From an uncultured Candidatus Saccharibacteria bacterium (GTDB lineage: Bacteria > Patescibacteriota > Minisyncoccia > Phycocordibacterales > XYD1-FULL-46-19), in assembly GCA_964639285.1 (NCBI GenBank), contig CAZXCI010000004.1, forward strand, positions 5,252 to 69,251: DNA of 64,000 nt, read 5' to 3'. The number at the start of each line of letters is the position of its first letter. Position 1 is the first letter of the stretch. Below are positions 1-20,727 of this stretch, piece after piece. The translations under genes were made by a program, and so were the position numbers. The notes beneath the pieces are model-generated. The model saw only the letters and a program-made list of their open reading frames with translations. It was not told where the DNA came from and did not search any database.

Positions 1-428
1 ATTCGGTCGATTTGCGAGCATAAAGACAATATTTGACCTTTTGGGTTGGTAAGGCCATTGGTTGGCTTATTTGGGCACTTATGGCTTGTATTTCCATATT
101 ATATTGATGACAGACCCCAAAACCTTGTAAAGCTATGCAGAATTGACCGTTTATTACATAATCGTGGGCTAGCTTTACAAATATTTTGATCAGCGATAGG
201 GTTGGACGGATACAATTTTTGGTTGTATTATTACATTAACAATTTAATAAGAGACCTAAACTTATTACTCCTAAGCATGGTCGTCAAATTCCCACCACGG
301 GTGCAAAAAACTCCTAGTCAGAGTTACCTGTGGTGGGTCATATTCCGAAAGGGATATGGGTGGTCCTCGGATCACCGGCTGGCTAGGAGCTTTTTGCAAC
401 TAGCCAGAACTCAAAACCCACCACGCAA

Positions 429-923
429 ATGAATATCGAAAAAGAACCTTCTGATTCTAGGGTTCAAAAATTTAATTGGAATCAACCGCTTATTAAGAAA
501 CTTATTATTATCTTTTCTATCGTAGTTTTAATTGCGGTCGGTGTTGTCATGAATGACGATTCAAACATCAAAAAAACTACGAAAGAGAATGTTAGCAGAC
601 AGAAAGTAGAGACAAAAGATTTTCTGACAATCGGCGATACTGGATATCTGCGATTGCCTAGCACCAAAAATCCAGAACAAATGATCTGTTTGGGTCCGAC
701 TAAAGAATCTTACAATCAAATAATGAAATCTATTTCAGCTAAAGATTTCCTCGGAGTCTTTGAAGCAGGAGGTTTCTGCACTGGAAACGGAACAAAAGTT
801 CAAGTCATAGACGTTAGTTTCTCAATGAAGAAAGTAAGGATCATGGAAGGTGTCCGAGAAATAGACCAAAATGTCTTATTGCGAACTGGTTGGGTCGCAA
901 CAGAATGGGTCGTTAAAGACTAA
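429..923 (+). CDS. hypothetical membrane-anchored protein
   Basis: 164-aa ORF; N-terminal hydrophobic segment (LIIIFSIVVLIAVGVV); no recognisable domain. Confidence 0.4.
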   Translation: MNIEKEPSDSRVQKFNWNQPLIKKLIIIFSIVVLIAVGVVMNDDSNIKKTTKENVSRQKVETKDFLTIGDTGYLRLPSTKNPEQMICLGPTKESYNQIMKSISAKDFLGVFEAGGFCTGNGTKVQVIDVSFSMKKVRIMEGVREIDQNVLLRTGWVATEWVVKD

Positions 924-933
924 ATCCACCGAT

Positions 934-1485
934 ATGTCGACTTTCGCCATTCAATTTCCTGAATACGATATCGCTAATAAACTTAAGGAGGAATTTCCTC
1001 AAAAGGATAATTTCTCGGTAGCAATACCACTTAGTCGCCAACAGAAATATTATGACTTACTATTGGTTAACGGAGCCAAAAATAAATTTGTGACGATTCA
1101 AGTTAAGAGTTCGCGAACATATCTAGGCAAAGAAAAAGATATTTTCGATTACTATTCTTGGTTTAATCGGTTCGATATTAAAGACAATTATAGTGATTTC
1201 TATTTCCTCTATATGACTTATCCTTTCTTCGACAAGAATGGAAAACCTCGGGCCAAATGGAACACGAAGATTCTTGTTTTTAATCAGAGAGAGATGAAGC
1301 AAATACTGGATCAAGTCAAAACTAAATCGGGAAAGCCAGACTTATTTTTTTCTTTCGGCTTTAATCAAGACAAAGATTCCAAGATTTATGGCCAACGAGG
1401 TTTTTCATCACAAAAGGAAAAAGATTATTCAGCTAATCTACTAGAAAATAGAATTACCGGATTAAGGGCGAAATTTAAAGATTAA
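934..1485 (+). CDS. hypothetical protein, possible PD-(D/E)xK-like nuclease fold
   Basis: ORF track 871..1485; an internal ATG at 934 follows the upstream stop by 10 nt. D..(Q)VK pattern (YDLLLVNG...VTIQVKSS) is weak. Confidence 0.35.
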   Translation: MSTFAIQFPEYDIANKLKEEFPQKDNFSVAIPLSRQQKYYDLLLVNGAKNKFVTIQVKSSRTYLGKEKDIFDYYSWFNRFDIKDNYSDFYFLYMTYPFFDKNGKPRAKWNTKILVFNQREMKQILDQVKTKSGKPDLFFSFGFNQDKDSKIYGQRGFSSQKEKDYSANLLENRITGLRAKFKD

Positions 1486-1871
1486 CTCCCTTGAGGGGCT
1501 TCTTCATTTGGTTTACGTCCCGGAACAATCTCGACCGTAATCTTTTCGACCCTTTCGCTTCCAGCATAGTTCTCCCAAAACATCTTCGGCCTTGGTCGGA
1601 CGTAATTCTTCTTGTTGTTATCTAACCAGTATCTGATCGCCCAAGGCTTACCTTCTTGAACAGCTTTGATCAGCCGACTTTCCGCAATATCATTACCTGA
1701 ATCAATACCCATCGCTAATGCTTTGTCCATTTCTTTTTTAAACTCGAGATCCTCTTCTCGCCAACGATAAATAGTATTTCTCGCTAGCCCCACCTTGGCA
1801 CAGACAGAACTAACAATCGGCACCAAGGCTAGTTCTTCTAAGAATCTATTTGATAATTTAGACTTCTTCAT
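1482..1871 (-). CDS. phage terminase small subunit-like HTH protein
   Basis: HTH segment (ARNTIYRWREEDLEFKKE) followed by the ...AIRYWLDNNKKNY... pattern, which resembles the ...aaIFwLKNR.p.W.dk signature of terS families. Confidence 0.45.
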   Translation of the reverse strand: MKKSKLSNRFLEELALVPIVSSVCAKVGLARNTIYRWREEDLEFKKEMDKALAMGIDSGNDIAESRLIKAVQEGKPWAIRYWLDNNKKNYVRPRPKMFWENYAGSERVEKITVEIVPGRKPNEEAPQGS

Positions 1872-3135
1872 TTTCTTTTAATACTTCGACCTTTAGACCT
1901 GTTAATGCTTCATAACGCTTGATGATCAAATCACAGAAGATGGGCTCAAGCTCGACAGAATAGACTCGGCGTTTTAATTGTTCGCCGGCGATTAAGGTAC
2001 TCCCCGAACCAGCAAAGCTGTCTAAGATGATGTCACCGGGCTTAGTACAACGAGTAATTGCTTTGTGGTGAAGTTCTGGTGGTTTAGTGGTAGCGTGTTC
2101 GTAATCGTTACTAGCCACCCTCTTCTCCATCCAAATATCACCGATTTGATCAAGAAGATCGTTACCTGTGCCTAACTCGTTATTCATCGCTTCGTTAAGG
2201 TCAGTTTTGTCGGTGGCGAGATACGGTTTGCCTTTGGTGCCATAGGTACAAGGCTCATAGCATTTGTTGAAAGCGACTCCCGGGGTTGGGTTCTGGCTAT
2301 TTTTAATCCAGAGACAGACTCGTTTGTTCTCGATCCCTAATTCTCGGTAGAGGGTCTGAATGAGCCAAATATATTTCTGATCAGACCAGTAGAAGACGTG
2401 GAGATTAGGTGAGGCGACCATCAGGGCATTCTCTAAGCTTCTCTTGAGAAAATCGTGGTACTCTGAATCAGTGCGGTCGTCTTTGACTTGGCCACCATAA
2501 TTATTCTTTCCGCCAATTCCACCGTTGTAGTCGATTTTGATGTTGTAGACAGGATCAGAGTAGATCATGTTAGCCTTATCGTCACCAAATAGCCGTTTAA
2601 GGACATTGGGATCAGTGGAATCACCACAGATGAGCTTGTGGCGACCTAAGAGGATTAAATCACCCTTTTGGGTTGTTGGAGTCTTGATATCTCGAAGGGC
2701 TTTCTTGAGATCAAACTTTTCCTTCTTCTCGACTTCCTCGCTATCCCAAATCTCAGCCAGTTCAGTCATATCGAAACCAATATTAGCAAGAAAGTCGACA
2801 TCGAAGTCCTTAAGAGCTTCGTAGTCCCAATCGCCAGTGACGGCGTTGCTGGTTAGGAGGTATCGTTCATATTCCTCATCGGTTAAGGGGCGGTTAGGAA
2901 CTCGAACATCTATCAACTCCTCACCACGGCCCAAGAGTTGCAAGGCCTTAATGCGTTGATGCCCAGCGATGATCTTGTTGTCAGTATCAATCGCGGGAAT
3001 TTCGACGAGATTGAATAATTTGAGACTCTTTTTCAGATCAGCCATTTGCTTGTCTGAAATTAGACGTGGGTTCTTCGAGGAGGGTAAGAGGTCGTTGACT
3101 TTGCGCTTCTCGGTGGACCAAATTAAGTTATCCAT
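1858..3135 (-). CDS. ParB-like nuclease domain fused to a beta-class DNA N6-adenine/N4-cytosine methyltransferase
   Basis: N-terminal ParB motif (NKIIAGHQRIKAL); motif IV variant LICGDS...SDPVYN; C-terminal SAM motif I LDSFAGSGST; overlaps the terS-like gene. Confidence 0.7.
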   Translation of the reverse strand: MDNLIWSTEKRKVNDLLPSSKNPRLISDKQMADLKKSLKLFNLVEIPAIDTDNKIIAGHQRIKALQLLGRGEELIDVRVPNRPLTDEEYERYLLTSNAVTGDWDYEALKDFDVDFLANIGFDMTELAEIWDSEEVEKKEKFDLKKALRDIKTPTTQKGDLILLGRHKLICGDSTDPNVLKRLFGDDKANMIYSDPVYNIKIDYNGGIGGKNNYGGQVKDDRTDSEYHDFLKRSLENALMVASPNLHVFYWSDQKYIWLIQTLYRELGIENKRVCLWIKNSQNPTPGVAFNKCYEPCTYGTKGKPYLATDKTDLNEAMNNELGTGNDLLDQIGDIWMEKRVASNDYEHATTKPPELHHKAITRCTKPGDIILDSFAGSGSTLIAGEQLKRRVYSVELEPIFCDLIIKRYEALTGLKVEVLKENEEV

Positions 3136-3211
3136 AATAAAAATGAAGCTAAATTAATAATAGCCTCATTAAATCAGAGGGCTAAAATTCAATTCGGAAA
3201 ATAACAGGTTG

Positions 3212-3982
3212 TTATTTTCCGAGACCAAATATTTTTTGTCGAGCTCTATCTAAGGCTCGTTTGCTATCATAAGTTTTTTTAACATCAGGATGGCCCTCTA
3301 ATTCTCTGGTCGCCTCATTAATTGTCATTTTGTATTCCTTATTTTCAACTTCATCAAGACGCTCAAGATCTCCCCTTGTTTCTTCATAAAGGATGTCCCG
3401 GTCGATATTTCTTAACTTAGGAGCCTTCTCTAACTTGCAGAGATTATTAACAAAATATTTAAGGTCGGTAAGGTCGTCATCGGTCAATTGGTGGTAAATA
3501 TTGACTCTCAACGATCTCGGCTTTTGGTCCATGTCTTTGGGAAAAGGATCTGTAACCGTAAAATTATTTGTTGGTGCAGTTATCTTGTTTAATAGTAGGT
3601 AATCTCTTATGTGGTTAATAAAGTTAGCGGGTAGATTAAACCTTAGAGCTATCTCCCTTGTTTTATGAGAAAAGTAAGTCCACGGGATATCAGTGACAGA
3701 ATATTGAGAATTGCCGTTTTTAATTTCGAGGATCATCTTATCTGAACTTTTAGACATCTCGTCAACCCATTTTTCACATTCTTCGTTTGTTTCCAAGCCG
3801 TCAACAGGGATACCCAGATATTCCCTTACTTCGTCAATTATGATCTGAAATTCTTCGGTAGAGACTAATAATTTCATTATTGAGAGATTTCTCTGGTGGG
3901 TCTTTGATTGTCTCTCTGTTTTTTCTCTCCTTTTTGCCATATTTAGATTATACGACAGTTTAGAAATAAAAAAGTTATCCAC
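3212..3982 (-). CDS. hypothetical protein
   Basis: 256-aa ORF with no recognisable motif; true start may be internal (MAKRREK.. or MKLLVS..). Confidence 0.35.
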   Translation of the reverse strand: MDNFFISKLSYNLNMAKRREKTERQSKTHQRNLSIMKLLVSTEEFQIIIDEVREYLGIPVDGLETNEECEKWVDEMSKSSDKMILEIKNGNSQYSVTDIPWTYFSHKTREIALRFNLPANFINHIRDYLLLNKITAPTNNFTVTDPFPKDMDQKPRSLRVNIYHQLTDDDLTDLKYFVNNLCKLEKAPKLRNIDRDILYEETRGDLERLDEVENKEYKMTINEATRELEGHPDVKKTYDSKRALDRARQKIFGLGK

Positions 3983-4078
3983 AGGTAGTTAAAAAAAGAG
4001 AAAAACCTTATATTTCAAGGTATTTTTGATTGCTTGAAAACGAAAAATATGGTATAATAGGGTCATTATTAGCTAATT

Positions 4079-4330
4079 TTGAAGAAAATGGCAAATTATC
4101 ATGTTACTAAGGACAAGGATTCTGGAGATTGGAGAGTAAAAAGAGAAGGGGCCAGCAGAGCGAGTGACTTCGCTGATACCCAAAAGGAAGCTATAAAAAT
4201 CGCCAAAGAATTATCTTCAAATTCTGGCGGTGGAGAAGTCCGGATTCATAGTCCCAAAGGTCCAATTATCGACAGTGACACCGTTGCCCCAGCAAAAGAT
4301 CCCTGTCCTCCGATTGATAAAAAACACTAA
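4079..4330 (+). CDS. DUF2188-family small protein
   Basis: MANYHVTKDKDSGDWRVKREGASRASDFADTQKEAIKIAKELS...EVRIHSPKG matches the DUF2188 pattern. Confidence 0.5.
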   Translation: MKKMANYHVTKDKDSGDWRVKREGASRASDFADTQKEAIKIAKELSSNSGGGEVRIHSPKGPIIDSDTVAPAKDPCPPIDKKH

Positions 4331-4343
4331 AACAAATTTATTG

Positions 4344-5402
4344 ATGAAAAAGAAGTTTGATTTAAAGAAAAAAATCACAGAGGATGCTATCAGTGAATTT
4401 TTAAAGCAAAAACCTGACTTAAGCCTTTTTCATCGTGAGCAGACAGATTTAGAATTTAAAGAATCATTTAATCTTGCCGGATTGGCAGAGTATTTTCGTG
4501 ACTTTGCGGGATTCTCCAATAATTCTGGAGGTTTTATTATTTTTGGAGTAACAAATAGACCAAGGCGCCCCAACGGTTTATCAAAAAAGAGTTTGGTTCA
4601 ATTTTCAAGTATCGATGAAGAGAGAATTTCTGGTTATATTAATGAACACTTTGCTCCTTATATAGAATGGGAAATGGATACATTAAAAATTAAAGGCAAA
4701 ACGTTTGGTGCTTTTTATGCCTACCAGTCTTCTAACAAACCTGTTATTTGCAAAAAGGGAGATGATAAACAGATCATAAAAAACGGTGAGGTATATTATC
4801 GCTATGCAGGAAGAACAGAAGTTATCCAATATTCTGAACTTTCCAACATTATCGAAAATAGGATTAAAGAAAACAATAAACAATGGATTCAGAAGGTTAA
4901 AAAAATAGGAGAAATTGGTCCCGGGAATGCTGGTATTCTTGATACCGCAAATGCGACAATCGAAAGTGGAAATGGAACACTTTTAATAGATCAAGATCTT
5001 ATAAAGAATATTAATTTTATAAAAGACGGAGAATTTGATGAGAAAAAAGGTTCAAAAACTTTAAAACTAATTGGATCTGTAAAACCTGTAAATAAGTTGG
5101 AGGTCGAAAAAGTAATCAAAGAGAGATTAATAGATGAATACCCTTATTCATACAAACAACTAGAGGGAGAGATCAGGAAAAAAGACCCTCGAGCAAAGAT
5201 CAGCCGAATACAAGGAATAATTAAAGAGAACAATTTAAAAAATGATAAAAAATATTCAGCTTACAATTTTAGAAACAGGAATCAAGAGGAAAAGTATAAA
5301 GAAAATAAAATTATACCAAGTTCGGTCCCTTCTATTTTTAACATGGCAGCGATACAGTTTGTTTTAAAAGTCCTCTCTCAAGAAGTTATAGACAAATCTT
5401 AA
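4344..5402 (+). CDS. AlbA_2 (Schlafen-like divergent AAA) domain protein
   Basis: REQTDLEFKESFNLAGLAEYFRDFAGFSNNSGGFIIFGV matches the AlbA_2 signature (E.LEFK...AFAN..GG.l.iGV). Start taken at the internal MKKKFDL of ORF 4230..5402. Confidence 0.55.
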   Translation: MKKKFDLKKKITEDAISEFLKQKPDLSLFHREQTDLEFKESFNLAGLAEYFRDFAGFSNNSGGFIIFGVTNRPRRPNGLSKKSLVQFSSIDEERISGYINEHFAPYIEWEMDTLKIKGKTFGAFYAYQSSNKPVICKKGDDKQIIKNGEVYYRYAGRTEVIQYSELSNIIENRIKENNKQWIQKVKKIGEIGPGNAGILDTANATIESGNGTLLIDQDLIKNINFIKDGEFDEKKGSKTLKLIGSVKPVNKLEVEKVIKERLIDEYPYSYKQLEGEIRKKDPRAKISRIQGIIKENNLKNDKKYSAYNFRNRNQEEKYKENKIIPSSVPSIFNMAAIQFVLKVLSQEVIDKS

Positions 5403-5403
5403 A

Positions 5404-6156
5404 ATGGATGTCAAATTTACTAATTCAGAAAATTGTCTAATCGGTGAAGAAGAATTTACTTATTTCAGAGATTTTGTCTCCCTCTTAAAACAAATTGAGG
5501 AAACTCTAAAAGAAATTGGGGCGAAAAAGTTTTTTTCAAGTCCTGATCAGAAAATTCAAAGAGCAAGAGAAAGCCTAGCAGAATTCTTTTTTATTTCCGG
5601 CCTAAAAAAAGATACTGGTAAGGACTGGTGGTTATTGCAACCTAAAGATGAATTTCCTGATTTTATTTTAATGACCGTCAACAATGACCCCCTAATGGTT
5701 ACTTTGGACCAATTTGAACTAGTTGAGATACAGGAAAGATGCCAAACATTCGATGAGATGCTCTCTATTGTTAATAAGAAAATTAAAAAGGGTTATCCAG
5801 AAAACTACAATCTTCTGATTTTCATTAACCACAAGGAGAGTATAAACTGGCTATCTCGTTTAGAAGAAAAAATTGAAAGCTTCCACCCTTTCAAATCGAT
5901 TTGGTCTATACATCTCCTTTTCCGTGATCCGAAGGATATTTTTAGTGCTGTCATAACACAAATAAGACCTTACCCCATTAAAAGAATAGAAGTTAAGTTT
6001 AGCGATGAAGAATTATATAAACAATCATCGATCTTGAATATTACCGAAAAAATAGAAACTAGCGAAGGAATTTTTCTCCAATTCAAATCTGGGGTGGTCT
6101 CTGAATTAAAAAAAGAATTGAGAAAAATTAAAAAAGAGAAAAAGGAACAACAATAG
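5404..6156 (+). CDS. hypothetical protein (operon partner of the AlbA_2 gene)
   Basis: 250-aa ORF; starts 1 nt after the upstream stop; no known domain recognised. Confidence 0.4.
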   Translation: MDVKFTNSENCLIGEEEFTYFRDFVSLLKQIEETLKEIGAKKFFSSPDQKIQRARESLAEFFFISGLKKDTGKDWWLLQPKDEFPDFILMTVNNDPLMVTLDQFELVEIQERCQTFDEMLSIVNKKIKKGYPENYNLLIFINHKESINWLSRLEEKIESFHPFKSIWSIHLLFRDPKDIFSAVITQIRPYPIKRIEVKFSDEELYKQSSILNITEKIETSEGIFLQFKSGVVSELKKELRKIKKEKKEQQ

Positions 6157-6166
6157 CAAATAAATA

Positions 6167-7273
6167 ATGGAAGAAAAATCTGGGAAAAACCTCAAATCAC
6201 ACCAATACTACTCAGACCTCTACGATCGCCACACTGTTGAAGAATGTCGGCGCTGGGTCAAAAAATCAGACGACAAAGAACAAATAAATAAAGGAGTTAA
6301 AGATCTCAAAATAACCCGAGCTAAGGCAAAAATCGTACTCAAGTGTGTTAACGAACTCTCGCTTTATTTCATTTCTGGTGAACGCTATGCCAATAAATCA
6401 ATGACAATTCGTGAATGGGAAGAAAGAGACAGAGCTCGAGATGAGTTACTAGAAAAGGCTAAAGCCCCCGATTCAATCGCTTGTTTATCTTGTGGTCGTC
6501 TAATGTTTGTTTCTTCTAAACACCTTGACCTTGGAGGTGTAAAAGGTCCCGAGCGTGTCCTCTTTATGTATGATTGCCCTCTTGGTCACTTACCTCGTCG
6601 AGCTTTCTATCACACAGGTGAAGAATGGCGTCGTCCTCCTCACGAATGTCCTAAATGTAAATCTGAATTTAAAAGAGAAACCGAGCGAGAAGAAGGAAAG
6701 AAAATTGTTATGAAATACGCCTGTCACAAATGTGGCTATGTCGAAAATGAAGAAATAGACCTAATTGATAAGCCTAAGGAAAAAGAGAAGATTGACCGAG
6801 ATTTTGCAAAAGATAGAGATCGTTTTTGTTTGTCTAAAGAGGAGGGTGAAAAATATCTTGAGGGAAAAGCGACATTAGAATCAATCGGACCCCTTCTTGA
6901 AGAATGGAAAGAAAGGGATGAGCACAAAGAAGAATACGAAGCTGTGTCTAAACTCAAGAAATTAAAAATAACCGAACTTGAGGAATTGTTAATTCCCACC
7001 TTAGAAAAAGCTGATTATACTAAGCTTCAATTCAAAGATCCTGAGATGAATAAAGATGTTTTTCTTCCTTTTACTGTTTACGACAAACAAGCCAATCGGA
7101 GTGATCGAGAAAGCGAGATCAAACTCAAAAAATTGCTCGATAAGACCCTTGAAGATACTAATTGGCGACTTATGAGTGACGGGGTAAATTATCGCTTAGG
7201 AATGCTTAGTGGACGGCTAAGGGGTTATGAAAGAGAAGAAGATATGCTGAAAATTGTATATCTTTCTAATTAA
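6167..7273 (+). CDS. hypothetical protein with two zinc-ribbon-like Cys pairs
   Basis: CLSCGRL...DCPLGH and ECPKCK...CHKCGY pairs; charged K/E-rich C-terminal half. Confidence 0.4.
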   Translation: MEEKSGKNLKSHQYYSDLYDRHTVEECRRWVKKSDDKEQINKGVKDLKITRAKAKIVLKCVNELSLYFISGERYANKSMTIREWEERDRARDELLEKAKAPDSIACLSCGRLMFVSSKHLDLGGVKGPERVLFMYDCPLGHLPRRAFYHTGEEWRRPPHECPKCKSEFKRETEREEGKKIVMKYACHKCGYVENEEIDLIDKPKEKEKIDRDFAKDRDRFCLSKEEGEKYLEGKATLESIGPLLEEWKERDEHKEEYEAVSKLKKLKITELEELLIPTLEKADYTKLQFKDPEMNKDVFLPFTVYDKQANRSDRESEIKLKKLLDKTLEDTNWRLMSDGVNYRLGMLSGRLRGYEREEDMLKIVYLSN

Positions 7274-7296
7274 AAATCATTATTTAAAAATAAAAT

Positions 7297-8001
7297 ATGG
7301 AAAATAAAAAAGAATTCCTCGGGACACTTAAACAGATTTCGCCAAGGCTTTTAGTTGACGAGAAAGACGAAAAAGAAATCCAAAACTTCTTTCTTATCCT
7401 TGGCCTTATCTTTAACGATTTAAAAGGTCTGGTGTTTTTTCAAAAATTTCTTGAAGAAAATTACCGGAAACCAAAGGAAGATGAGACGACCGAACATGCT
7501 GGGGAATACAATGGGCTAATGGCTCAAGCTGATAGACTACTAATCTCCACAGTTGGCGAATTTTACAAATTTATAGAAAAAAATAAATCTGTATTAAACA
7601 GCTACCCTTTTTTATTTATTATTAAAAAACTTAGCCCAAATATCAGAAATAAATGGAGTGACCTTGTTAATTTAGAGCATGGTTCAACCATTTTGTCGAA
7701 AATAGCAAAAATCAGATCAAATGTTGCCTTTCATTATGATCACCCGATGAAAGTATTAAGGAAAGGATTTATTGGTAGCTTCTTTTCAGAAAGAAAGAAT
7801 ATCGCTCAACATCTGAAAGCTTGCTATTCTCTTGGTGAAGATATGGAACATACTCGCTTTTATTTTTCAGATGCATCCGCTCAAGACTACGTCAATTCTT
7901 TAATCGGTGCTGAAGATAGGGCAAAAATTAAGGGATCTGTAGAAGACATGAACAACACGATTCAGGCTTTGCTAAGGGCATATTTGGAAAATCTAAAATA
8001 A
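7297..8001 (+). CDS. hypothetical all-alpha protein, possible HEPN-like Rx4-6H motif
   Basis: RSNVAFH matches Rx5H; last gene of the tight four-gene operon. Confidence 0.35.
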   Translation: MENKKEFLGTLKQISPRLLVDEKDEKEIQNFFLILGLIFNDLKGLVFFQKFLEENYRKPKEDETTEHAGEYNGLMAQADRLLISTVGEFYKFIEKNKSVLNSYPFLFIIKKLSPNIRNKWSDLVNLEHGSTILSKIAKIRSNVAFHYDHPMKVLRKGFIGSFFSERKNIAQHLKACYSLGEDMEHTRFYFSDASAQDYVNSLIGAEDRAKIKGSVEDMNNTIQALLRAYLENLK

Positions 8002-8014
8002 TCTTTAATTTGTT

Positions 8015-8049
8015 AAAAAGTGTCACTTTTGTCACTTTTTGCTAGAATG
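8015..8049. repeat. 35-bp direct repeat copy 1 (palindromic operator-like, AAAAGTGtCACTTTT plus GTCACTTTTT)
   Basis: Identical 35-mer aaaaagtgtcacttttgtcactttttgctagaatg at 8015-8049 and 19948-19982. Here it is followed by TATAAT. Confidence 0.85.
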
Positions 8050-8068
8050 TATAATATATTTAGCCATT

Positions 8069-8599
8069 ATGGTTTTAGATGACAATATAAAACATTATAA
8101 AAAGGAACTCGGGGATCTACCCTTGTGGTTAAAATATGCAGTCGCTATCGCCACTATTTTTGGAACCATATTTGGCGGTTGGGGTGTATATATAGTTATT
8201 AGTGATAAAAACAATAAAGATCGATTGTTAGACAGCACGACTGCAACATCCTCAATTCCAATAAACATAACGAGTATATTATCTATGGCTCTTCATAAAG
8301 ATACTGCAATGGAACAGAGAGATTTTTTAAATAAGTATGAGGATGTTAAAGTCTTTGTCGATGGATATTTCAAAGATATATTGAATTACGGCGAAAACTA
8401 CCAAGTGTTTATAGATTCTTCCCTTTTACCTTTCAGAAATATACCGATTGTGTGCTCCTTAGACAATTTAAGCGAAGATGAAAAAAGAGAGTTATTCCTA
8501 TTCAAAAAACGTGACAAAGTATTACTTAGAGGTGTATTCACAGGTGGTAATTACAATGGAATTGCATGGTACGTGAAAGAGTGTCGCGTAGAAAAATAG
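8069..8599 (+). CDS. small membrane protein (cassette between repeat A and repeat B)
   Basis: ORF track 8039..8599 begins at TTG inside the repeat; the first ATG is at 8069. Hydrophobic segment (YAVAIATIFGTIFGGWGVYIVI). Confidence 0.4.
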   Translation: MVLDDNIKHYKKELGDLPLWLKYAVAIATIFGTIFGGWGVYIVISDKNNKDRLLDSTTATSSIPINITSILSMALHKDTAMEQRDFLNKYEDVKVFVDGYFKDILNYGENYQVFIDSSLLPFRNIPIVCSLDNLSEDEKRELFLFKKRDKVLLRGVFTGGNYNGIAWYVKECRVEK

Positions 8600-8600
8600 A

Positions 8601-8614
8601 GGTGCTCGAGTTGC
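8601..8614. repeat. 14-bp direct repeat B copy 1 (ggtgctcgagttgc)
   Basis: Exact repeat of 19985-19998. Lies 2 nt after the cassette gene stop. Confidence 0.7.
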
Positions 8615-8801
8615 TTCACCAATGATTATAAATTACACTAAAAATAACCTTATGGGGCTTGACCGAGAAAGGTTCTAGCTCTAGTCGGCCAGCCAGCTTG
8701 AGCTAGCTCAAAGATAACTAGTTTGAAGACAAAAAACACTTTTTATTTCGAAGGTGTTTTTTGTTGTTTTATATTACAACAAACTATGCTATAATCTTTG
8801 T

Positions 8802-9008
8802 ATGAAAGATGATGCCAAAAAGTTGGGAGAAAATCTCAAAAAACTTAGGATCAAAAAAGATATTAGCCAAATAGAACTCGCTCGTATGTTGAGTGTTGAT
8901 CGATCTTTTGTGAGTAATATCGAGAATGGAAAAAATAATCCAACTCTTTCAACCATTACTAGCTTAGCCAAGGCGTTAGGTGTTTCAACTAACGAACTTT
9001 TAAAATAA
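8802..9008 (+). CDS. XRE-family HTH transcriptional regulator
   Basis: ISQIELARMLSVDRSFVSNIENGKNNPTLSTITSLAKALGVSTNEL is a classic Cro/C1 HTH; TATAAT lies 11 nt upstream. Confidence 0.75.
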   Translation: MKDDAKKLGENLKKLRIKKDISQIELARMLSVDRSFVSNIENGKNNPTLSTITSLAKALGVSTNELLK

Positions 9009-9009
9009 T

Positions 9010-10320
9010 ATGTCGTCATCAATAACAAACACCGGTGATAATACGCTTTCGTCAAACTTAAAGAGCATTTTGCCTAATTGCGATAAGGTAGATGCTTTGG
9101 TTGGATATTTTTACTTCTCTGGTTTTCGGGATTTACATAATGAACTAAAAGATAAACAAATTAGAATCTTGGTTGGAATGGATATTGATAAGAAAATTAT
9201 TGATAAAGTATCAACACTCAAAGATTTAAACCTAGACTCATATACAACAGATACAAAAACATCTTCTCGCTCTATTGCAAAGGATGATTACATTGAGAAC
9301 TTTTCAAGGATTTTTAACGACACAGATTTTTTTGATAATGACGAATCTCAGAAAGCTTTTGAGATATTTTTTTCGCAGGCAGACGAGACTAAAGAGTTAA
9401 ATATTTATAAAATCGAACACAAGATCTTAACACTAACGACTTGCGCGGTTATGGAAGATAAAAATAATTTAACCTCTTTTGAAATTGACGGTGTTAAATT
9501 TTCTCATTGGGAATTTAATTATCGAGACGGTTGGACAAATGACGCTTGGTTAGCGACGGCAGAAATTTCAGCTGAAAGTTTTTTGGATGCTTTAAATGAA
9601 TTAGCGAGAAAACTTTCAAAATTAATCTCTCGTATTTCTTTAATTTCCCAATCTTATATTGAATATATCAACGAACCATTTCTTATTCATAAAAAAGGGA
9701 GTGACGTATTTTTCTTCCGCTACGTAGCAGATGCTCATGTTGGAGGATTGATGTTTATGGAAAATGAACAAAAAGCTTTAAATCAACTTCTTAATAATAA
9801 AAACGTTCCAGAACCTTTTTATTATTATTGGAATGATGCAATCAACGCTTCTGGGTATTCAGCCAAATTACTTCTCATGTTTTCTGCGATTGAGTCACTT
9901 GTTAAAGATAATGGTAAAAAAAATTGGAATTTAACAAATGAAATATTAGGAAAAGATCTAGTTAAAGAATTGTTTGGGACGAAAGAAAATTCAAATACTG
10001 GACTTAGGCACAGACTTGTCCATGGAGAATATTTTGGAAATCTCGATCATGGGAAAAATTATCTGGAACTCGTTCACAATAAAGTAATATCTTACTTTAA
10101 TAAAAAAGTTTTAGACGAAAAATTAATACTAGAAAATATTGTTAATCCTCAGAGAAATTTGTTTGGAAATAAAGAACAAGAAAATTTCTTCTTGAAGGGT
10201 AAAGTCGAGCATAGAGATTTAAATCTGAAAGAAGTACTCAAAGATTTTGATGAAAACCGACCAATTTTACCCCAAAATTATGAAATTATTTATGACAAAA
10301 ATCTAGTGAATGTCTATTAA
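9010..10320 (+). CDS. hypothetical 436-aa protein with PLD-like N-terminal signature, co-operonic with the XRE regulator
   Basis: VDALVGYFYFSGFRDLHNELKDKQIRILVGMDID resembles the a.GYF..SGf..l...l....iRiLvG N-terminus of PLDc_2/NgoFVII-type nuclease domains; starts 1 nt after the XRE stop. Confidence 0.4.
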   Translation: MSSSITNTGDNTLSSNLKSILPNCDKVDALVGYFYFSGFRDLHNELKDKQIRILVGMDIDKKIIDKVSTLKDLNLDSYTTDTKTSSRSIAKDDYIENFSRIFNDTDFFDNDESQKAFEIFFSQADETKELNIYKIEHKILTLTTCAVMEDKNNLTSFEIDGVKFSHWEFNYRDGWTNDAWLATAEISAESFLDALNELARKLSKLISRISLISQSYIEYINEPFLIHKKGSDVFFFRYVADAHVGGLMFMENEQKALNQLLNNKNVPEPFYYYWNDAINASGYSAKLLLMFSAIESLVKDNGKKNWNLTNEILGKDLVKELFGTKENSNTGLRHRLVHGEYFGNLDHGKNYLELVHNKVISYFNKKVLDEKLILENIVNPQRNLFGNKEQENFFLKGKVEHRDLNLKEVLKDFDENRPILPQNYEIIYDKNLVNVY

Positions 10321-10361
10321 AAGCTTAGAAATTGCCATATTATTAAGCTACCAAAGCAAAA

Positions 10362-10392
10362 GGGCCTGCGCGGAATAAATCCTTGCAGGCCC
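10362..10392. terminator. bidirectional hairpin terminator between convergent genes
   Basis: GGGCCTGCgcggaataaatccttGCAGGCCC, 8-bp GC stem. Confidence 0.55.
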
Positions 10393-10396
10393 TGTG

Positions 10397-12073
10397 TTAG
10401 ATAGTTCTAAGCAACTTGCGTGCCTTCTGCTCGGCCATGGCGACATACTCGTGAAAGTCGTCGACTTTGTTTAATTTGTTGTCAGCGATGAGATAAGCGA
10501 AATCGATTCTTGCCTTCTCAAGGAAATCGCGGTCATGAGATACCAAGATCACGGTTCCCTTGTAACTCGATAGAACTTCTTCAAGTGCTTCGACAGCTTC
10601 GGCGTCAAGATGATTGGTTGGCTCATCAAGCACTAAAGCGTTAACCGACAACAGAGAGAATAGGCTGAGCAATAAGCGAGCACGGCCACCCGGACTAATC
10701 TCAGAGATTTTGCCTCGGATGTCTTTCTCTCCGAAGCCAAACCTCACTAGGGCGGCGAAAACTTCCTGATCGATTCGTCCCGTTCGCTCTTTGATAAAAG
10801 CGAGCAAAGTTTCTTCGCGAGAGAGTGTCTCGTGCTCTTGCATCATGTTGCCGATCTTGAGACCAGAACCAATTGAGACTTGACCAGAGATCGGGGCCAG
10901 TTTGCCCGTGATCGTCTTGAGGAGTGTTGACTTGCCACTGCCGTTAAGCCCAAGAAAACCGACTCGATTGCCGTAACTGATGGCCAAACTAATCGGTCCA
11001 ATTTCAAACCGACCAGGATAACCAGCAACTACTTGGTCAAGCGAGATATCCATCGGACTACCATTGCTGTAGGCTTCAAGCGAGATAGACAACGGTTCGT
11101 GATCAACGACTCTTTCCACTTTATCCATTCGTTCGATCCGCTTCTCAAGAACCTTGGCCACCTTACCGGACTTTGACGATTTGTCTTGCTTGAAACCGCG
11201 CAAGAACTTATCATTGTCGCTACCTTGCCAACGAGAACCGCGAGTTGCTGCCGCTTTTTTCTCTCTGGCTTGTTCGGTGAGTCGGCTTATTTCCTCCTGT
11301 TGTTGACGATACTGCTCTTTCTGTCGGCTACGATCTTTCGCTTTTCGTTCGAGATACTCACTATATGAGCCGTTGCTCACATTGAGCAATCGAGTTTGTC
11401 GATCAAGTTCGAAAACTCGATCGGTTACTCGATCTAAGAAGCGTCGATCGTGCGAGACGATGATGCAGGCCACATCAGACTTCAACAAAAAATCTTCCAA
11501 CCAAATCAAGGCTGGCAGATCCAAGTTGTTCGTCGGCTCGTCGAGCAGAAGCAGGTCGATGCCGGTTAGCAGGATGCCTATCAGAGCAACTTTGCTCTTT
11601 TGACCGCTAGACAGATCGGATAACGGCCGATCAAGTCCAACATTGTCCATACTGAAACCAGACATCATCACTTCGGCTCGATGTTTGAGTGAGTAGCCAT
11701 CGAGATGGTCATAACGCTCATGGACGTTGGCATAGTGATCGCTTATCGCTTTGTCACTCAAACCAGTTTCCAGTCGAACCAACTCTTCTTCCAGTGCGGC
11801 GATACCTGTCACCCGGTGCAGATACTGCCAAATCGTCTCGGTCCCAGCCATGCTGGTATCTTGGGGCATATAGCCAAGACAGGTGCCTCGACTAATTTCG
11901 ACTTGACCGCTCTCTGCTACATCCAAACCAGCGATAATCTTAAGCAGGGTTGTTTTACCAACCCCATTACTACCAACCAAAGCCACTCTTTGCCCACGTT
12001 CCAAGCTAAAGGAGACGTCGGAGAACACGACTTTAGTACCGTAGCTTTTGCTGATTTTCTTAACTTTTAGCAT
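10397..12073 (-). CDS. ABC-F family ATPase (EttA/ARE-like translation factor; two ABC domains, no TM)
   Basis: Two Walker A motifs (GSNGVGKTT, GLNGSGKST), two LSGGQ-type signatures, charged ~85-aa interdomain linker; GC richer than the host. Confidence 0.75.
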   Translation of the reverse strand: MLKVKKISKSYGTKVVFSDVSFSLERGQRVALVGSNGVGKTTLLKIIAGLDVAESGQVEISRGTCLGYMPQDTSMAGTETIWQYLHRVTGIAALEEELVRLETGLSDKAISDHYANVHERYDHLDGYSLKHRAEVMMSGFSMDNVGLDRPLSDLSSGQKSKVALIGILLTGIDLLLLDEPTNNLDLPALIWLEDFLLKSDVACIIVSHDRRFLDRVTDRVFELDRQTRLLNVSNGSYSEYLERKAKDRSRQKEQYRQQQEEISRLTEQAREKKAAATRGSRWQGSDNDKFLRGFKQDKSSKSGKVAKVLEKRIERMDKVERVVDHEPLSISLEAYSNGSPMDISLDQVVAGYPGRFEIGPISLAISYGNRVGFLGLNGSGKSTLLKTITGKLAPISGQVSIGSGLKIGNMMQEHETLSREETLLAFIKERTGRIDQEVFAALVRFGFGEKDIRGKISEISPGGRARLLLSLFSLLSVNALVLDEPTNHLDAEAVEALEEVLSSYKGTVILVSHDRDFLEKARIDFAYLIADNKLNKVDDFHEYVAMAEQKARKLLRTI

Positions 12074-14801: not shown

Positions 14802-15185
14802 TTATCTCCGGTCAAAATAGTCTTGTACCTTAGCCGCTAAAGCCATCGGCATTAGTTCGGTTTTGCCCCAGAATTCAGTCGCTCCCAGTGCCATAAATTT
14901 TTCTTTAACCTCTTTCTTGTCAAGATTAGTAAAAACAATGACTGGGATATCTTTAGTTTCAGGATCGACTTTCAGTCTTTTTAATACTTCTTCACCATCG
15001 ACATCTTCCATGACAATATCGAGAACGATAACTTTGGGATGCCATCTTTTAGCTTGTTGGATACCAACTTCACCACCATTGGCCATAACACTAGGAATTT
15101 TCATTAAGTCAAAAGCTGATTTGTATAAAAACATCTGATCCGAATCATCCTCAATCATTAATACTTGTTTTATTTCTTCGGCCAT
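14802..15185 (-). CDS. stand-alone response regulator receiver (CheY-like REC) protein
   Basis: VLMIEDD...KVIVLDIVMEDVDG...IPVIVFTN receiver motifs; no output domain. Confidence 0.7.
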   Translation of the reverse strand: MAEEIKQVLMIEDDSDQMFLYKSAFDLMKIPSVMANGGEVGIQQAKRWHPKVIVLDIVMEDVDGEEVLKRLKVDPETKDIPVIVFTNLDKKEVKEKFMALGATEFWGKTELMPMALAAKVQDYFDRR

Positions 15186-15216
15186 AATATTTATTTATAG
15201 TGAGTTTATTGAACTG

Positions 15217-17376
15217 TTATTTAGTTTTTGGGATTGTAATTGTAAATTCAGTACCTTTACCTTCTTCACTAGTGAATGTAATTGTTCCACCAGAGTGAGC
15301 CTCGATGATTTCTTTAGTGATAAAAAGACCTAAGCCAGAACCATCAGTGTACATATCGACAGCATTTTTTGCCCGTTCAAATTTGCCAAACATCCTCGCT
15401 TGATCATCTTTCGGGATACCGACACCCGTATCTTTAACCTTAATGATAATACTTTGGGGATTTTCGTCCAGTAGCACTTCTACCTTACCCTCTTTGGTGT
15501 ACTTCAGCGCGTTATCAACCAGATTGAAGCAGGCCTGTTCCAAGTAATCGGGATCAGAATTGATTTGCGGATTGGCCAGATTAGGAGTAAAGATTAATTG
15601 TAGCTTCTTCTCATTGGCAAAGGTTTGATTGTCAGCAATGACATCAGTCAATATTTTGTTAAGCTCAACGGGTACGATCCTTTTCTCCACAAAACTAAAT
15701 TTCTCTGTATCAAATTCCGAAGCTTGAAGAATGTCGCGAATGATTTGGCTAATCTTAAGCGACTTTTGATAGATATTATCAATCAACTTATTCTGCGTCT
15801 CGACTGGCATTTTTTGGACCGAACCCTCTTTGAACATTGAGATAGTGCCAGAAATAACAGAGATTGGAGTTTTAAGTTGGTGAGAAGCGATGTCCAAAAA
15901 TTCTGACCTCATCGCTAACAATTTCTTTAAGTGTTCCGCTTGCTCTTCAAGCACCTTGGTCTTATCTTGCAAGCTCATTGTCTGCTCGTTGACTTTTTGT
16001 TTGAGTGTTTTGTTGAAATCCTTAACTTCCTTGTATAGTTCGGCGTTATCAATCGCGATCGCGGCTTGATTTGAGAGTGTCATTAGCAACTCAAGGTCTT
16101 CAACTGTAAATGGATCACCGATCACTTTTGGGCCTAAAATAATTAAGCCAATCAAACGCTCGTTACTAACCATGGGCAAACAAATTGTTGCCCCTAAACT
16201 CTTAACTTGCTCATAAACAGCACTAAAAATTTCTCGCTGTTCTTTTAATCTCTCGTCGTTAACTAAAATACTCAATTCTTCAAGTACCACCGGGCGTTGA
16301 TTAGTTTGCAGGTATTTTATAAGTGGGTCTTTTTTTACTGAACGGTCATTCTTCTGAAATAAATTAATCTCTACTCGGGTGATGCCAAGAGATTCTCTGA
16401 TTGTTGTCGAAACCAAATCATTAATTTTAGACAAGTCGGTATAGTGAGTTAATTGACCAGAGACCCGATTAATAGTTTCTTGGTAATTGTAGAGCGAAAA
16501 AAATAAATATTTATTGGCTAATTTTTCAATCCACTTGGAAGAATACTGGAAAAGTGTGACAAAAAGAACCGCAATGACAATTCCAAGGAGGAAAGATTTA
16601 TTAGAATAAGCTCCACCAAGTAGATTATTTTCAAACCAGAGAATAACGTAATAGGCGACATAAGCAATAACACTCGCTCCGGCAAAAATAAAAATCTTTC
16701 GAGCGACGATGCGAATGTCCATTAAGCGATAGCGGATAATTGAATAAGCCACGGTGGCAACATAAGCTGAAGTAAAGATATTAAAAATCGGCGGAATAGG
16801 GATATAATACCAGAGAAAATAATTAGTCGAACCGCCAGCAAAACCAAAAATCATACCTAGTAAAACATATTTAATTTGAAGTCGTTGCAAGCCTTCAGCA
16901 GAACGATAACGTTGATAAAGCAGATAGGAAGAATAGATGACGTAGGCTAACCAAATCGGCAAGAAGATATTAAAGATTGGACCAGCAATTGGCCAGAAAG
17001 CAAAGCCGAGAAGTGGTTCGACATGACTAATAAACAAAGGAGTAGCATTAAATAGAAGGAAGATAACAAAAAGAAAATAACTAAGAACCAGAAATATCTT
17101 TTGTTTTGGGATATTTAAAAAACGAAGGACAAAGTGTAAATAAGTAACCGGAATAAAAATTGCACCCGCCATTAATACTCGGCACCAAAATAGGGCTGAA
17201 TCAGGATTATTAGCAATCTGCCAGAGATAATAAAAGAAACTCCAAAAAGCGATAGTAAAAGCAAAGGCCGAAAAAGCCTGACTCGTTCGGTCTTTTTTAT
17301 TCTTAACTAAAACAAAAAGCCCAAGTCCCAAACTCGTTAAAAAATTAAATAGTGCCGAGAAAGCGTAAAAAGTCAT
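15217..17376 (-). CDS. sensor histidine kinase (multi-TM N-terminus, GAF, HisKA, HATPase_c)
   Basis: H-box SHQLKTPIS, G-boxes (DTGVGIP, GSGLGLFI), ~7 N-terminal hydrophobic helices. Confidence 0.75.
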   Translation of the reverse strand: MTFYAFSALFNFLTSLGLGLFVLVKNKKDRTSQAFSAFAFTIAFWSFFYYLWQIANNPDSALFWCRVLMAGAIFIPVTYLHFVLRFLNIPKQKIFLVLSYFLFVIFLLFNATPLFISHVEPLLGFAFWPIAGPIFNIFLPIWLAYVIYSSYLLYQRYRSAEGLQRLQIKYVLLGMIFGFAGGSTNYFLWYYIPIPPIFNIFTSAYVATVAYSIIRYRLMDIRIVARKIFIFAGASVIAYVAYYVILWFENNLLGGAYSNKSFLLGIVIAVLFVTLFQYSSKWIEKLANKYLFFSLYNYQETINRVSGQLTHYTDLSKINDLVSTTIRESLGITRVEINLFQKNDRSVKKDPLIKYLQTNQRPVVLEELSILVNDERLKEQREIFSAVYEQVKSLGATICLPMVSNERLIGLIILGPKVIGDPFTVEDLELLMTLSNQAAIAIDNAELYKEVKDFNKTLKQKVNEQTMSLQDKTKVLEEQAEHLKKLLAMRSEFLDIASHQLKTPISVISGTISMFKEGSVQKMPVETQNKLIDNIYQKSLKISQIIRDILQASEFDTEKFSFVEKRIVPVELNKILTDVIADNQTFANEKKLQLIFTPNLANPQINSDPDYLEQACFNLVDNALKYTKEGKVEVLLDENPQSIIIKVKDTGVGIPKDDQARMFGKFERAKNAVDMYTDGSGLGLFITKEIIEAHSGGTITFTSEEGKGTEFTITIPKTK

Positions 17377-17461
17377 TTGATATTTTTGAGAAAGAAAAAT
17401 CGCCCCGACTCAGTGTTTATTATAATACCAAGTCCGGGCGACGTCAGGCTCTTTCTGTTGA

Positions 17462-18508
17462 TTAAGCCTTCTTGTGAGCGACAACGATACCGTGGATCAT
17501 AAGGGGCTCGTAAATCAGGCGGAAATCATCGAAGTAGGACTGCTCGATGACGTCAGCGAGTTCTCGTGGCGACCGATAGATCATTGGCCAGTTGATAACC
17601 CACTTGAGGAAGTGCTGTTCGAAGTTCGGAGCAATGTTGCAGGTCAGATACAGACCGCCAGGCATTAGTGACTGCCTGATTTGCGACGACAGATGGATCG
17701 CCGTTTCTTGTGGTAGGTAGTCGAGCAGGCCCAACATCTCTACCACATGCGGTTTGAAGTCACGAGCAAAGTCCAAATTCTTGAGTGCGTTCGCTTGCAA
17801 GGTTTGGATTCGATCACGAACTCCATACTGTTCTGCTAATTGCTCAGCGTAAGCCAGTGCGGCCGGATTGATGTCGACCAGAAGCACTTTGACCGTGATG
17901 CCTTGTCGCTTGAGACGTGACACCACTTTAATCACGGCTTCGGCCGATCCGCAAGCCAAGGACATAATCCGCACTTCCGGCTCATTCGCGAACTGCACCA
18001 GCGCCCGACGGACCTCCATGGTCACAACTTTCAAACGGTTACGCACCGCTTGAGCGTTGACCATACCGATCCAGAAATCATCTAGTAATCCGCCAATTGT
18101 GCGTTTTCCACCAAATTGGTGGTTGTAGATGATGTCAAGAGCCTTCCAACCGGCCGCCGTTCCCTTGATCTGCATCAATTCCGATCCAAGACCATCAAAC
18201 CAGAGAGTATTGATGGACGGACCAGGCAGACCGAGGGCTTGGCGCAATTGTTTCTTGGCCATCACCCAGAGGGTGAGTAACCAAGAGATTGGCAGGGTTA
18301 GCACATACGGCCAGTAGCGCTTCTCGTACACAGAACGAGATGTCCCGACAGTATGCCCAACCGTTCCCGCTTCTTCGGCCAACCAATTGGCTTCCGAGGC
18401 AATTTCGATAGTCAAACCTTGTCCGTTCATTGCTATTCTCTCCTTTCTCAGGTTGTTTTTCACAAAGACCAAGTTATTGTTTGATTCCATTTTCCATGGA
18501 ACCACCAA
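17462..18508 (-). CDS. class I SAM-dependent methyltransferase-like protein
   Basis: IMSLACGSAEAV...VKVLLVDINPAAL is a Rossmann-type motif I / post I; GC-rich; start may be the internal MNGQ. Confidence 0.45.
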   Translation of the reverse strand: MVVPWKMESNNNLVFVKNNLRKERIAMNGQGLTIEIASEANWLAEEAGTVGHTVGTSRSVYEKRYWPYVLTLPISWLLTLWVMAKKQLRQALGLPGPSINTLWFDGLGSELMQIKGTAAGWKALDIIYNHQFGGKRTIGGLLDDFWIGMVNAQAVRNRLKVVTMEVRRALVQFANEPEVRIMSLACGSAEAVIKVVSRLKRQGITVKVLLVDINPAALAYAEQLAEQYGVRDRIQTLQANALKNLDFARDFKPHVVEMLGLLDYLPQETAIHLSSQIRQSLMPGGLYLTCNIAPNFEQHFLKWVINWPMIYRSPRELADVIEQSYFDDFRLIYEPLMIHGIVVAHKKA

Positions 18509-18591
18509 ATATAAGACTAGTCAAGTTTTTGTGCACAAAACTAAAGGGGGCCTGGATTTCTCCACACCCCCCGTTTCTCCTTTCTCTTGTT

Positions 18592-19806: not shown

Positions 19807-19947
19807 GGCCGTTCTCCTTCTGCTAAGTTAATGTGAGTTTGTTGACAAAGGTTAGTATTCCTTTATCAGGATACCATTGATTGAGAGAATAGTCAAATTT
19901 TGTTTTTTTATAAAAAATTGAGAGGGTTGGATAGGGTCAGAAACATC

Positions 19948-19982: not shown

Positions 19983-19984
19983 GG

Positions 19985-20695: not shown

Positions 20696-20727
20696 CACCT
20701 TTTTGATGTCCTTTCGTTTATTAAAAC

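Follow-up and report, generated by a model that had tools for sequence, protein, structure and literature searches.

A probable deletion derivative of a mobile restriction-modification cassette, fused in frame to a predicted HEPN-type gene in a Saccharibacteria genome

Two groups of described proteins form the background to the locus analysed here, the controller (C) proteins of restriction-modification (RM) systems and the HEPN RNases. The C-box of C proteins most often lies 17-18 nucleotides (nt) from the start codon, and the literature takes this modal distance as a mark of leaderless C mRNAs (PMC2632904). The hallmarks of HEPN RNases are an Rx4-6H motif, a polar residue (N, D, or H) after the arginine, and an Ex3[KR] motif, and for some MAE_18760-like HEPN proteins an N-terminal β domain of about 120 amino acids (aa) has been described (MAE_18760-NTD1) (PMC3710099). 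The locus itself belongs to an uncultured Candidatus Saccharibacteria bacterium (assembly GCA_964639285.1, contig CAZXCI010000004.1) and lies in a stretch of 64,000 nt, which was analysed as a whole and is called the window in the following. At positions 8802-10320 of the window a gene for a small XRE regulator is directly followed by an open reading frame (ORF) for a 436-aa protein. From the letters alone this pair had been read as a regulator and a PLD-like nuclease forming a toxin or abortive-infection (Abi) module (the sequence-only reading). Having compared both genes with their relatives, we consider it probable that a deletion in a mobile RM cassette recently gave rise to the locus and fused what was left of the cassette in frame to an intact gene of predicted HEPN type, as an accident of decay.

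The 436-aa ORF (9010-10320) has two sets of relatives that do not overlap. A search of 5.8 billion proteins returned 338 relatives, nearly all of which are 303-316 aa long and cover about 70% of the query, and in BLASTP stand-alone homologues of 307-312 aa match ORF residues 129-436 from their own residue 3 to their last residue with 63-69% identity. The second, separate set, found with HMMER among 1.84 billion cluster representatives, matches ORF residues 3-125 and consists of the N-termini of proteins of about 1100 aa (among them P0192, with 69% identity, and P0266) that carry PLDc_2/RE_NgoFVII, SNF2-related, and Helicase_C domains, PLDc_2 at 1e-8. The start of the ORF, VDALVGYFYFSGF...RILVGMDID, corresponds to the N-terminus of the PLDc_2/NgoFVII-type domains of these SNF2 helicases, and the suggestion that it is of the restriction and defence helicase type was right. 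Aligned with P0192, P0160, P0247, and P0266, the ORF tracks the PLD-SNF2 family through ...KAFEIF and then departs. The catalytic HxK of the relatives (QHGKFYILH or NHSKFYILH) lies 17-20 residues beyond this break. Of the roughly 200 residues of a PLD domain the ORF retains the first 121, and it has no catalytic HxK(x)4D, an absence that had been seen correctly, because the domain is truncated upstream of it. Neither the whole ORF nor residues 1-128 match PLDc_2 or another Pfam PLD family, even at E<=10. The other 70% of the ORF (308 of 436 residues) is an unrelated, complete protein whose AlphaFold model has no PLD fold, so that the protein cannot be called a PLD-like nuclease. No other protein joining both parts was found among the 5.8 billion sequences and the 1.8 billion cluster representatives. 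By its homologies the ORF is a chimera of the head of a PLD-SNF2 helicase and a complete protein of the 308-aa family.

The origin of the head becomes clear at the DNA level. Positions 9010..9372 (plus strand) correspond to codons 1-121 of a gene for a PLD(HKD)+SNF2 restriction helicase, and intact cassettes can be aligned with this DNA up to 9371, which is base 2 of codon 121. From 8670 to 9371 the window is 96.0% identical to locus L147 (GCA_964482735.1) and 92.9% identical to L065, and both alignments stop at that base. ORF residues 1-121 are 99% identical to the N-terminus of a 1097-aa protein in L065. The likeness to intact cassettes from the XRE gene to codon 121, like the other features noted here, is far beyond chance. 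Intact cassettes have the order tRNA-Gln, hairpin, palindromic operator and promoter, XRE gene, 1 nt, helicase, methyltransferase, and serine recombinase. Five of them (L147, L149, L151, L152, and L153) encode an identical XRE protein, the 1-nt gap, a 1097-aa PLD-SNF2 protein, and a Type IIG-like (N6-adenine) methyltransferase of 1034-1111 aa with Eco57I/TaqI_C domains, and all of them except L152 have a 439-aa large serine recombinase on the opposite, convergent strand at the right end. The methyltransferase is split into genes for 592 aa and 533 aa in L012, L065, and L066. PADLOC labels the helicase 'HKD+Snf2' (2e-31) or DrmD-like and its partner a Type IIG restriction endonuclease-methyltransferase. 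A metagenome scan with an alignment of the N-terminal part returned 80 loci, in 14 of which an XRE homologue is encoded directly upstream of the helicase ORF; ten of these 14 ORFs are complete with about 1080-1100 aa. Eight loci (L065, L066, L092, L147, L148, L149, L153, and L156) have a tRNA-Gln gene whose 3' end lies 106 nt upstream of the XRE start codon. A convergent recombinase at the cassette end together with a preceding tRNA-Gln suggests that the cassette is a small integrative element carrying only an RM system.

The window is without the helicase from codon 122 onward, without the methyltransferase, and without the recombinase, and no remaining piece of the helicase or the methyltransferase was found anywhere in it. 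Between 9371 and the start of the homology to the 308-aa proteins lie 22 nt. An alignment with the intact helicase and five stand-alone homologues assigns positions 9373..9393 (plus strand) to a junction linker of seven codons (SQADETK). From GAG TTA AAT at 9394 the window aligns with the stand-alone homologues, whose genes begin with ATG-xxx-GAA-TTA-AAT; the position of their native start codon reads ACT in the window. The helicase stump thus runs, in frame and with no stop codon, into codon 2 or 3 of the 308-aa gene, and the junction peptide of the chimera is AFEIFFSQADETKELNIYK (in a longer string, AFEIFFSQADETK). There is no in-frame ATG, GTG, or TTG before the methionine at residue 26 of the 308-aa core, which lies inside the first β sheet of the model. 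Therefore, the 308-aa part can be made only as a fusion, from the promoter of the C gene. The comparison with intact cassettes shows a deletion that removed the RM enzymes and left the first 121 codons of the restriction (R) gene reading in frame into a complete gene whose family is uncharacterised.

Two other interpretations of the break were tried and rejected. A site-specific recombination point does not fit, because an independent relic breaks elsewhere: L148, L154, and L155 encode the identical XRE protein and a 158-aa stump, which resulted from a deletion from R codon 88, and not 121, into the methyltransferase gene (L148:7001-7685, L155:164-848). The 308-aa gene is also not a native member of the cassette, given that no homologue is present in 83 cassette loci and that L147 has no homology beyond 9371. 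Across the XRE gene and the 121 codons the window differs from L147 at 9 of 571 nt. The fusion is by this measure recent, and this lineage is the only one in which it has been seen. With so recent an event, the frame could be open without any selection. Measured against L065, the 22 synonymous and 0-1 non-synonymous differences had looked like a sign of selection on the PLD stump, a reading that was withdrawn when the closer L147 was found. The L065 counts tell of the selection that acts on intact helicases of other lineages; they say nothing about the stump.

The XRE/HTH_3 gene in front of the ORF (8802..9008, plus strand; ATG at 8802, TAA at 9006-9008) encodes 68 aa and had correctly been recognised as a Cro/C1-type helix-turn-helix (HTH) gene (Pfam HTH_3, E=1.9e-18). 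PADLOC Control_protein matches its product at E=8.7e-15, and the solved structures nearest to it are those of C.AhdI (top PDB match, 8.8e-9) and C.BclI, with C.Esp1396I also listed. An exact-protein look-up found it on at least 23 contigs, and it has been deposited as MCC6198818.1 from a Candidatus Nomurabacteria genome. Because the identical protein heads intact RM cassettes, it is by all appearances an RM controller, the C protein of the ancestral cassette, and not an antitoxin. A single nucleotide (9009) separates its stop codon from the ATG of the 436-aa ORF at 9010, so that the tight coupling described in the sequence-only reading is indeed present; in the 15 relatives where it could be measured, the gap between C stop and R start is -4 to +8 nt.

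The region upstream of the gene holds a promoter-like site, a candidate operator, and a hairpin. A promoter-like site on the plus strand (8768..8795) consists of TTTATA (8768-8773), 16 nt, and an extended -10 element, TG-n-TATAAT, with TATAAT at 8790-8795. TTTATA-16-TG-n-TATAAT is the best sigma-70-like site in a scan of 7900-10500 (score 10/12). The TATAAT had been placed 11 nt upstream of the gene in leaderless style; the element and its style stand, and the distance was approximately right, the first base lying 12 nt and the last base 6 nt before the XRE ATG. A -10-like hexamer ends 6-7 nt before the ATG in L065, L066, L067, and L092 as in the window. As the sequence before the XRE ATG contains no Shine-Dalgarno sequence, a leaderless mRNA with a predicted transcription start at or next to the ATG is plausible. 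The candidate operator (8760..8783, not assigned to a strand) is a C-box-like palindrome, TTTGTTGT-N8-ACAACAAA (8+8), which overlaps the -35 region and whose right arm ends 18 nt before the ATG. The palindrome reads GTTGT-N8-ACAAC in the window, L065, L066, and L067 and GTTAT-N8-ATAAC in L073, L076, L078, and L092, so both arms have changed symmetrically across the loci. From this fit we infer that the XRE protein would bind to the palindrome and that transcription would start near the ATG. A terminator-like hairpin (8728..8765, plus strand) with a 16-bp stem and a T-run, which is kept in L065 and is the sole such site in the same scan, may insulate the cassette against upstream transcription.

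The second part of the ORF is the complete body of a gene of the family of about 308 aa (9394..10320, plus strand), with an N-terminal β part, a helical part with R-x4-H, and a small C-terminal α/β part. Its AlphaFold model (pLDDT 94.8) has a β-rich domain at residues 1-115, a helical domain at 122-245, and a small C-terminal α/β unit, and the R-x4-H motif lies in a short helix before the last long helix of the helical domain. A 17-nt inverted repeat (9792-9808 and 9811-9827, 94% complementary, 2-nt loop) is located inside the coding region of this core. The family has hundreds of members, mostly from bacteria of the Candidate Phyla Radiation (CPR). A genome scan for family loci, which used an alignment of 20 closer sequences, found 49 loci, most of them in Saccharibacteria, Paceibacterota, and other CPR groups and further ones in Nitrospirota, Nocardia, Gammaproteobacteria, Rickettsiales, Omnitrophota, and one Woesearchaeota archaeon. 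The window copy is among the best-conserved members, departing from the family at one of 43 highly conserved columns (42 of 43 intact). Scans of the ORF, each of its halves, and the core against Pfam, NCBIfam, PADLOC, and PHROGs gave no family, a search of the family profile against the PDB sequences gave nothing at E<=10, and when the 5.8 billion proteins were searched with the profile for annotated distant relatives, all entries listed were members of the family without annotation.

In about one in four of 47 loci the 308-aa gene lies in or beside an RM locus. The only recurrent neighbours are HsdS (seven loci by clustering), HsdM (five loci), and N6_Mtase/Eco57I methyltransferases (seven proteins among the two nearest upstream genes), and in L003, L015, L033, L045, and L145 the gene is co-oriented inside hsdM-hsdS-hsdR. 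GmrSD, DUF3644 (a HEPN family), and HNH proteins are neighbours in single loci, and the remaining neighbours are variable. In two loci (L003:6001-7578 and L145:324-1889) the 308-aa-family gene and a gene for a partner of about 210 aa both lie between hsdM and hsdS. The two partners share 73% identity and have no family match; gene and partner may constitute a two-gene embedded system. One family member, P0016, comes from a Levybacteria operon with the order hsdM, 308-aa-family gene, 211-aa gene, hsdS, and hsdR. An XRE gene adjoins the 308-aa gene in none of the 47 loci (the nearest is 798 nt off, in one locus), and the pair of an XRE gene and the 308-aa part has been found only in this lineage. 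The look for XRE-adjacent homologues, which the sequence-only reading had proposed as a check, thus went against it, and because these homologues never adjoin an XRE gene the pairing in the window is an accident of one deletion and not a conserved toxin-antitoxin (TA) or Abi architecture.

What the 308-aa protein might do is suggested by its conserved residues. Over 75 diverse members five residues are invariant (W54, R207, H212, N238, and R256), and two of these belong to the motif R-[H57/N16/Q2]-[R/K]-L-x-H-G, in which the arginine and the histidine are found in 75 of 75 members and the residue after the arginine is H in 57, N in 16, and Q in 2. An acidic residue (E/D) is present at core position 169, 38 positions upstream, in 74 of the 75, and K/R173 in 49. 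In the window the candidate catalytic motif is encoded by the RHRLVH codons (10006..10023, plus strand; ORF R333...H338, core R207...H212). The family has the motif expected of HEPN RNases, that is Rx4-6H with a polar residue after the arginine and an upstream acidic residue. A Pfam scan of the 75 members at E<=10 gave sub-threshold matches to HEPN_Apea (0.0018), MAE_28990 (0.005, two members), Swt1 (0.006, two members), and RiboL-PSP (0.075), and these four HEPN families include the sub-threshold Pfam matches with the best E-value and with the most members.

Several results weigh against this assignment. All matches in the Pfam scan were weak, and HEPN matches occurred in 6 of the 75 members; no Pfam, NCBIfam, PADLOC, or PHROG family reaches threshold for the 308-aa family. 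Foldseek gave nothing at E<=0.001, either with the full model against PDB and BFVD or with the helical domain (pLDDT 94.6) against PDB, and the best HEPN entry, the toxin 7ae6, came at rank 5 with E=3.8 and a TM of 0.25. The same structural comparison, which the sequence-only reading had named as another check, revealed no PLD fold in the 308-aa part. An hhalign comparison of the family profile with a neighbouring DUF3644 (HEPN) protein and with a 234-aa ORF of the window also found nothing, with single-sequence targets and thus weak power. On balance we lean towards calling the family HEPN-like, with RNase activity as the prediction. If so, it would represent a HEPN-type, metal-independent RNase effector of the RM-embedded kind, acting in abortive infection or as a back-up defence.

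The best explanation for the locus, which we hold with fair confidence, is the recent in-frame deletion derivative set out at the beginning. The C protein would bind the palindrome that overlaps its own promoter and would autoregulate a leaderless bicistronic mRNA, and ribosomes ending the C gene would reinitiate 1 nt downstream to produce the 436-aa chimera. The PLD stump of 121 residues, which has no active site, would be a passenger. The intact 308-aa part would now stand under the C-protein circuit through the fusion, by an accident of RM decay and not as part of an evolved TA pair. Expression of the chimera would in this case be leaderless, autoregulated, and coupled, and the family would act in RM-linked defence as a putative HEPN-type RNase. 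Apart from the results against a HEPN fold, three points speak against this explanation. The window-specific changes amount to two synonymous changes and one at the junction codon, too recent for a test of selection. The pre-deletion haplotype was not found, and all contigs with the identical ABC-F neighbour already carry the fusion. In addition, an extension of 128 residues made from a partial domain and placed on the first β strand could block folding of the 308-aa part.

The last point leads to the alternative that survives best, namely that the fusion is a pseudogene-like by-product whose protein is misfolded or not made and that only the autoregulating orphan C gene is functional. The confinement of the fusion to one lineage, the missing start codon of the core, and the incomplete N-terminal domain are all in line with such a wreck, and clearly non-functional stumps have arisen independently elsewhere (the 158-aa ORFs of L148 and L155). 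The event is also recent enough that the open frame needs no selection. Against it can be held that the junction is in frame without a stop, that the core is fully intact at conserved positions, and that the pair is conserved in strain variants with replaced upstream DNA; all three are compatible with inertness all the same. We regard this alternative as possible, although rather unlikely.

A chimera that is adaptively kept would be the opposite case. The C-protein delay circuit would then control a HEPN-like toxin, the PLD stump would serve as a new regulatory or interaction domain, and an XRE-effector pair would have arisen de novo. In its favour, the fusion has kept promoter, operator, and coupling, nothing is missing from the effector part, and the pair is fixed at the edge of the island while neighbouring cassettes turn over. 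Homologues of C proteins are known beside non-RM genes of mobile elements (PMC2632904). However, the architecture is without other examples, and too little has changed since the fusion for selection to be shown. To our knowledge a truncated PLD domain has no independent function, which also counts against such co-option. This scenario is improbable, and so, to a similar degree, is its most far-reaching form: that the 308-aa family is a new RM-embedded effector with a HEPN-like RNase centre and a fold new to PDB and BFVD that was captured in this lineage by the leaderless C-protein time-delay circuit of a dead restriction cassette. If it were true, the regulatory module of one immune system would have been naturally re-used to control a different, toxic effector.

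The pair of an XRE antitoxin or repressor and a PLD-family nuclease toxin, in a TA, Abi, or prophage-immunity module, is hardly credible any more, since, although the N-terminal signature is truly PLD-type and XRE-plus-effector is a common architecture, the PLD domain has lost HxK together with its C-terminal half, PLDc_2 does not match at E<=10, 308 of 436 residues belong to an unrelated protein without a PLD fold, none of the 47 core homologues adjoins an XRE gene, and the conserved partner of the XRE protein is the full PLD-SNF2 restriction helicase of an RM cassette.

At the left edge of the conserved cassette the window retains a degenerate 3' end of tRNA-Gln (8671..8696, plus strand), a remnant of T-arm and acceptor (...GGTTCTAGCTCTAGTCGGCCAGCCA) that aligns with the 3' ends of the intact tRNA-Gln genes. 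Two strain variants, L006 and L007, are the same as the window from 8690 rightward and diverge exactly upstream of CAGCCA, the tRNA 3' end. The pair of XRE gene and ORF is 99.97-100% identical in these variants, and the DNA upstream of the former tRNA-Gln 3' end (window 1-8690) is wholly different. L006 has there an N6_N4 methylase, a ResIII helicase, DUF2779, an Mrr-like nuclease, and a glyoxalase, and L007 an ORF of 247 aa. The site of the tRNA-Gln 3' end behaves as a hypervariable insertion point of a defence island. L006 also lacks 5.3 kb of the window (16037-21346), which partly overlap a second patch of low guanine-cytosine (GC) content at about 15000-17500, and is otherwise 99.95-99.97% identical.

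The locus lies within a stretch of low GC content (about 0.29-0.39) that ends at about 10,350, and beyond it follow ABC-F and housekeeping genes in convergent orientation with a GC content of 0.44-0.51. The sequence-only reading had put the pair just inside an island bounded by repeats. This was not borne out, as the only long repeat nearby, an exact 35-nt repeat (8015-8049 and 19948-19982), does not delimit the low-GC island. It is accompanied by a 20-nt repeat of 90% identity (8595-8614 and 19979-19998). At 19948-19998 the two repeats are contiguous and comprise a promoter-like TTGTCA-17-TAGAAT together with the leader of an ECF-sigma-like gene, which starts at 20112. The first copies flank a membrane-like ORF of 186 aa (8039-8599), a pattern that would fit an insertion of this ORF into such a promoter and leader.

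Other genes of mobile or defence type in the low-GC region encode a small-terminase-like HTH protein (1482-1871, minus strand), an N6_N4 DNA methylase (1858-3135, minus strand), DUF2188 (4079-4330), and a Schlafen/AlbA_2 protein (4230-5402). A zinc-ribbon ORF of 368 aa at 6167-7273 has no family assignment. Its homologue in the Woesearchaeota locus (L055:4195-5295) lies two genes downstream of a 308-aa-family gene and adjoins a Type IIG-like methyltransferase of 976 aa. The 234-aa ORF mentioned above (7297-8001) contains RSNVAFH, an Rx5H pattern, and scans against Pfam, NCBIfam, PADLOC, and PHROGs gave it no family. This could be one more HEPN-like gene, or RSNVAFH could be there by chance. 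Close to the left end of the window, at 253-376, a LOOT RNA was found (Rfam RF03000, 68.4 bits at a gathering score of 46.4). LOOT is a small RNA motif known from the OD1, OP11, and TM7 lineages, and finding it here points to a CPR host.

For annotation, the locus means that the call of an XRE regulator with a PLD nuclease toxin was plausible but wrong, because the diagnostic N-terminal motif belongs to an enzyme that has been deleted. As an accident of evolution, the locus is in itself of modest interest, and the parts worth following up are the 308-aa family and the mobile cassette. The cassette, with its C-protein-controlled PLD-SNF2/Type IIG-like system, targets tRNA-Gln, circulates nearly unchanged among CPR bacteria, and decays repeatedly by internal deletion. 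The 308-aa family is widespread, unannotated, and recurrently embedded in Type I RM operons, and its structure is predicted with confidence. With its Rx4H invariant, and with most members in lineages passed over by culture-based defence screens, it is a reasonable candidate for a new abortive-infection RNase.

Compared with the RM C proteins C.AhdI, C.BclI, C.Esp1396I, and C.PvuII, the XRE protein is likewise a small HTH_3 protein that in its intact relatives is coupled upstream of a restriction gene, and it resembles them in the palindromic site 18 nt before the start codon and in the predicted promoter of leaderless type; among solved structures such C proteins are its best matches. In contrast to the classical systems, it belongs with a PLD+SNF2 helicase and a Type IIG-like methyltransferase and not with a classical Type II endonuclease, its candidate operator GTTGT-N8-ACAAC is, as far as checked, not among the published C-protein motifs, and the restriction gene in the window is destroyed. 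The intact relatives of the helicase match the models for HKD/PLD and SNF2 proteins (PADLOC 'HKD+Snf2' C3a139, DISARM DrmD-like, with Type ISP/IIG-like partners), whereas the window keeps 121 non-catalytic residues and is without HxK, helicase, and cognate methyltransferase. With the HEPN effectors of RM operons (ApeA, MAE_28990/MAE_18760-like, Swt1/Abi2-like, PrrC/RloC) the 308-aa family shares the invariant R-[H/N]-x3-H, an acidic residue upstream of it that is often part of Ex3K, an all-helical domain, a β-rich domain of about 115 aa at the N-terminus, and the place between hsdM and hsdS; it differs from them in having neither a threshold match nor a significant structural match nor a PrrC-like ABC-ATPase domain. 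The family follows the same genomic logic as the defence candidates of Payne et al. (bioRxiv 10.1101/2024.01.29.577857), genes embedded in Type I RM, BREX, or DISARM loci; it differs in that PADLOC-DB v2 does not contain it and in that it belongs mostly to uncultivated CPR lineages beyond RefSeq-based screens.

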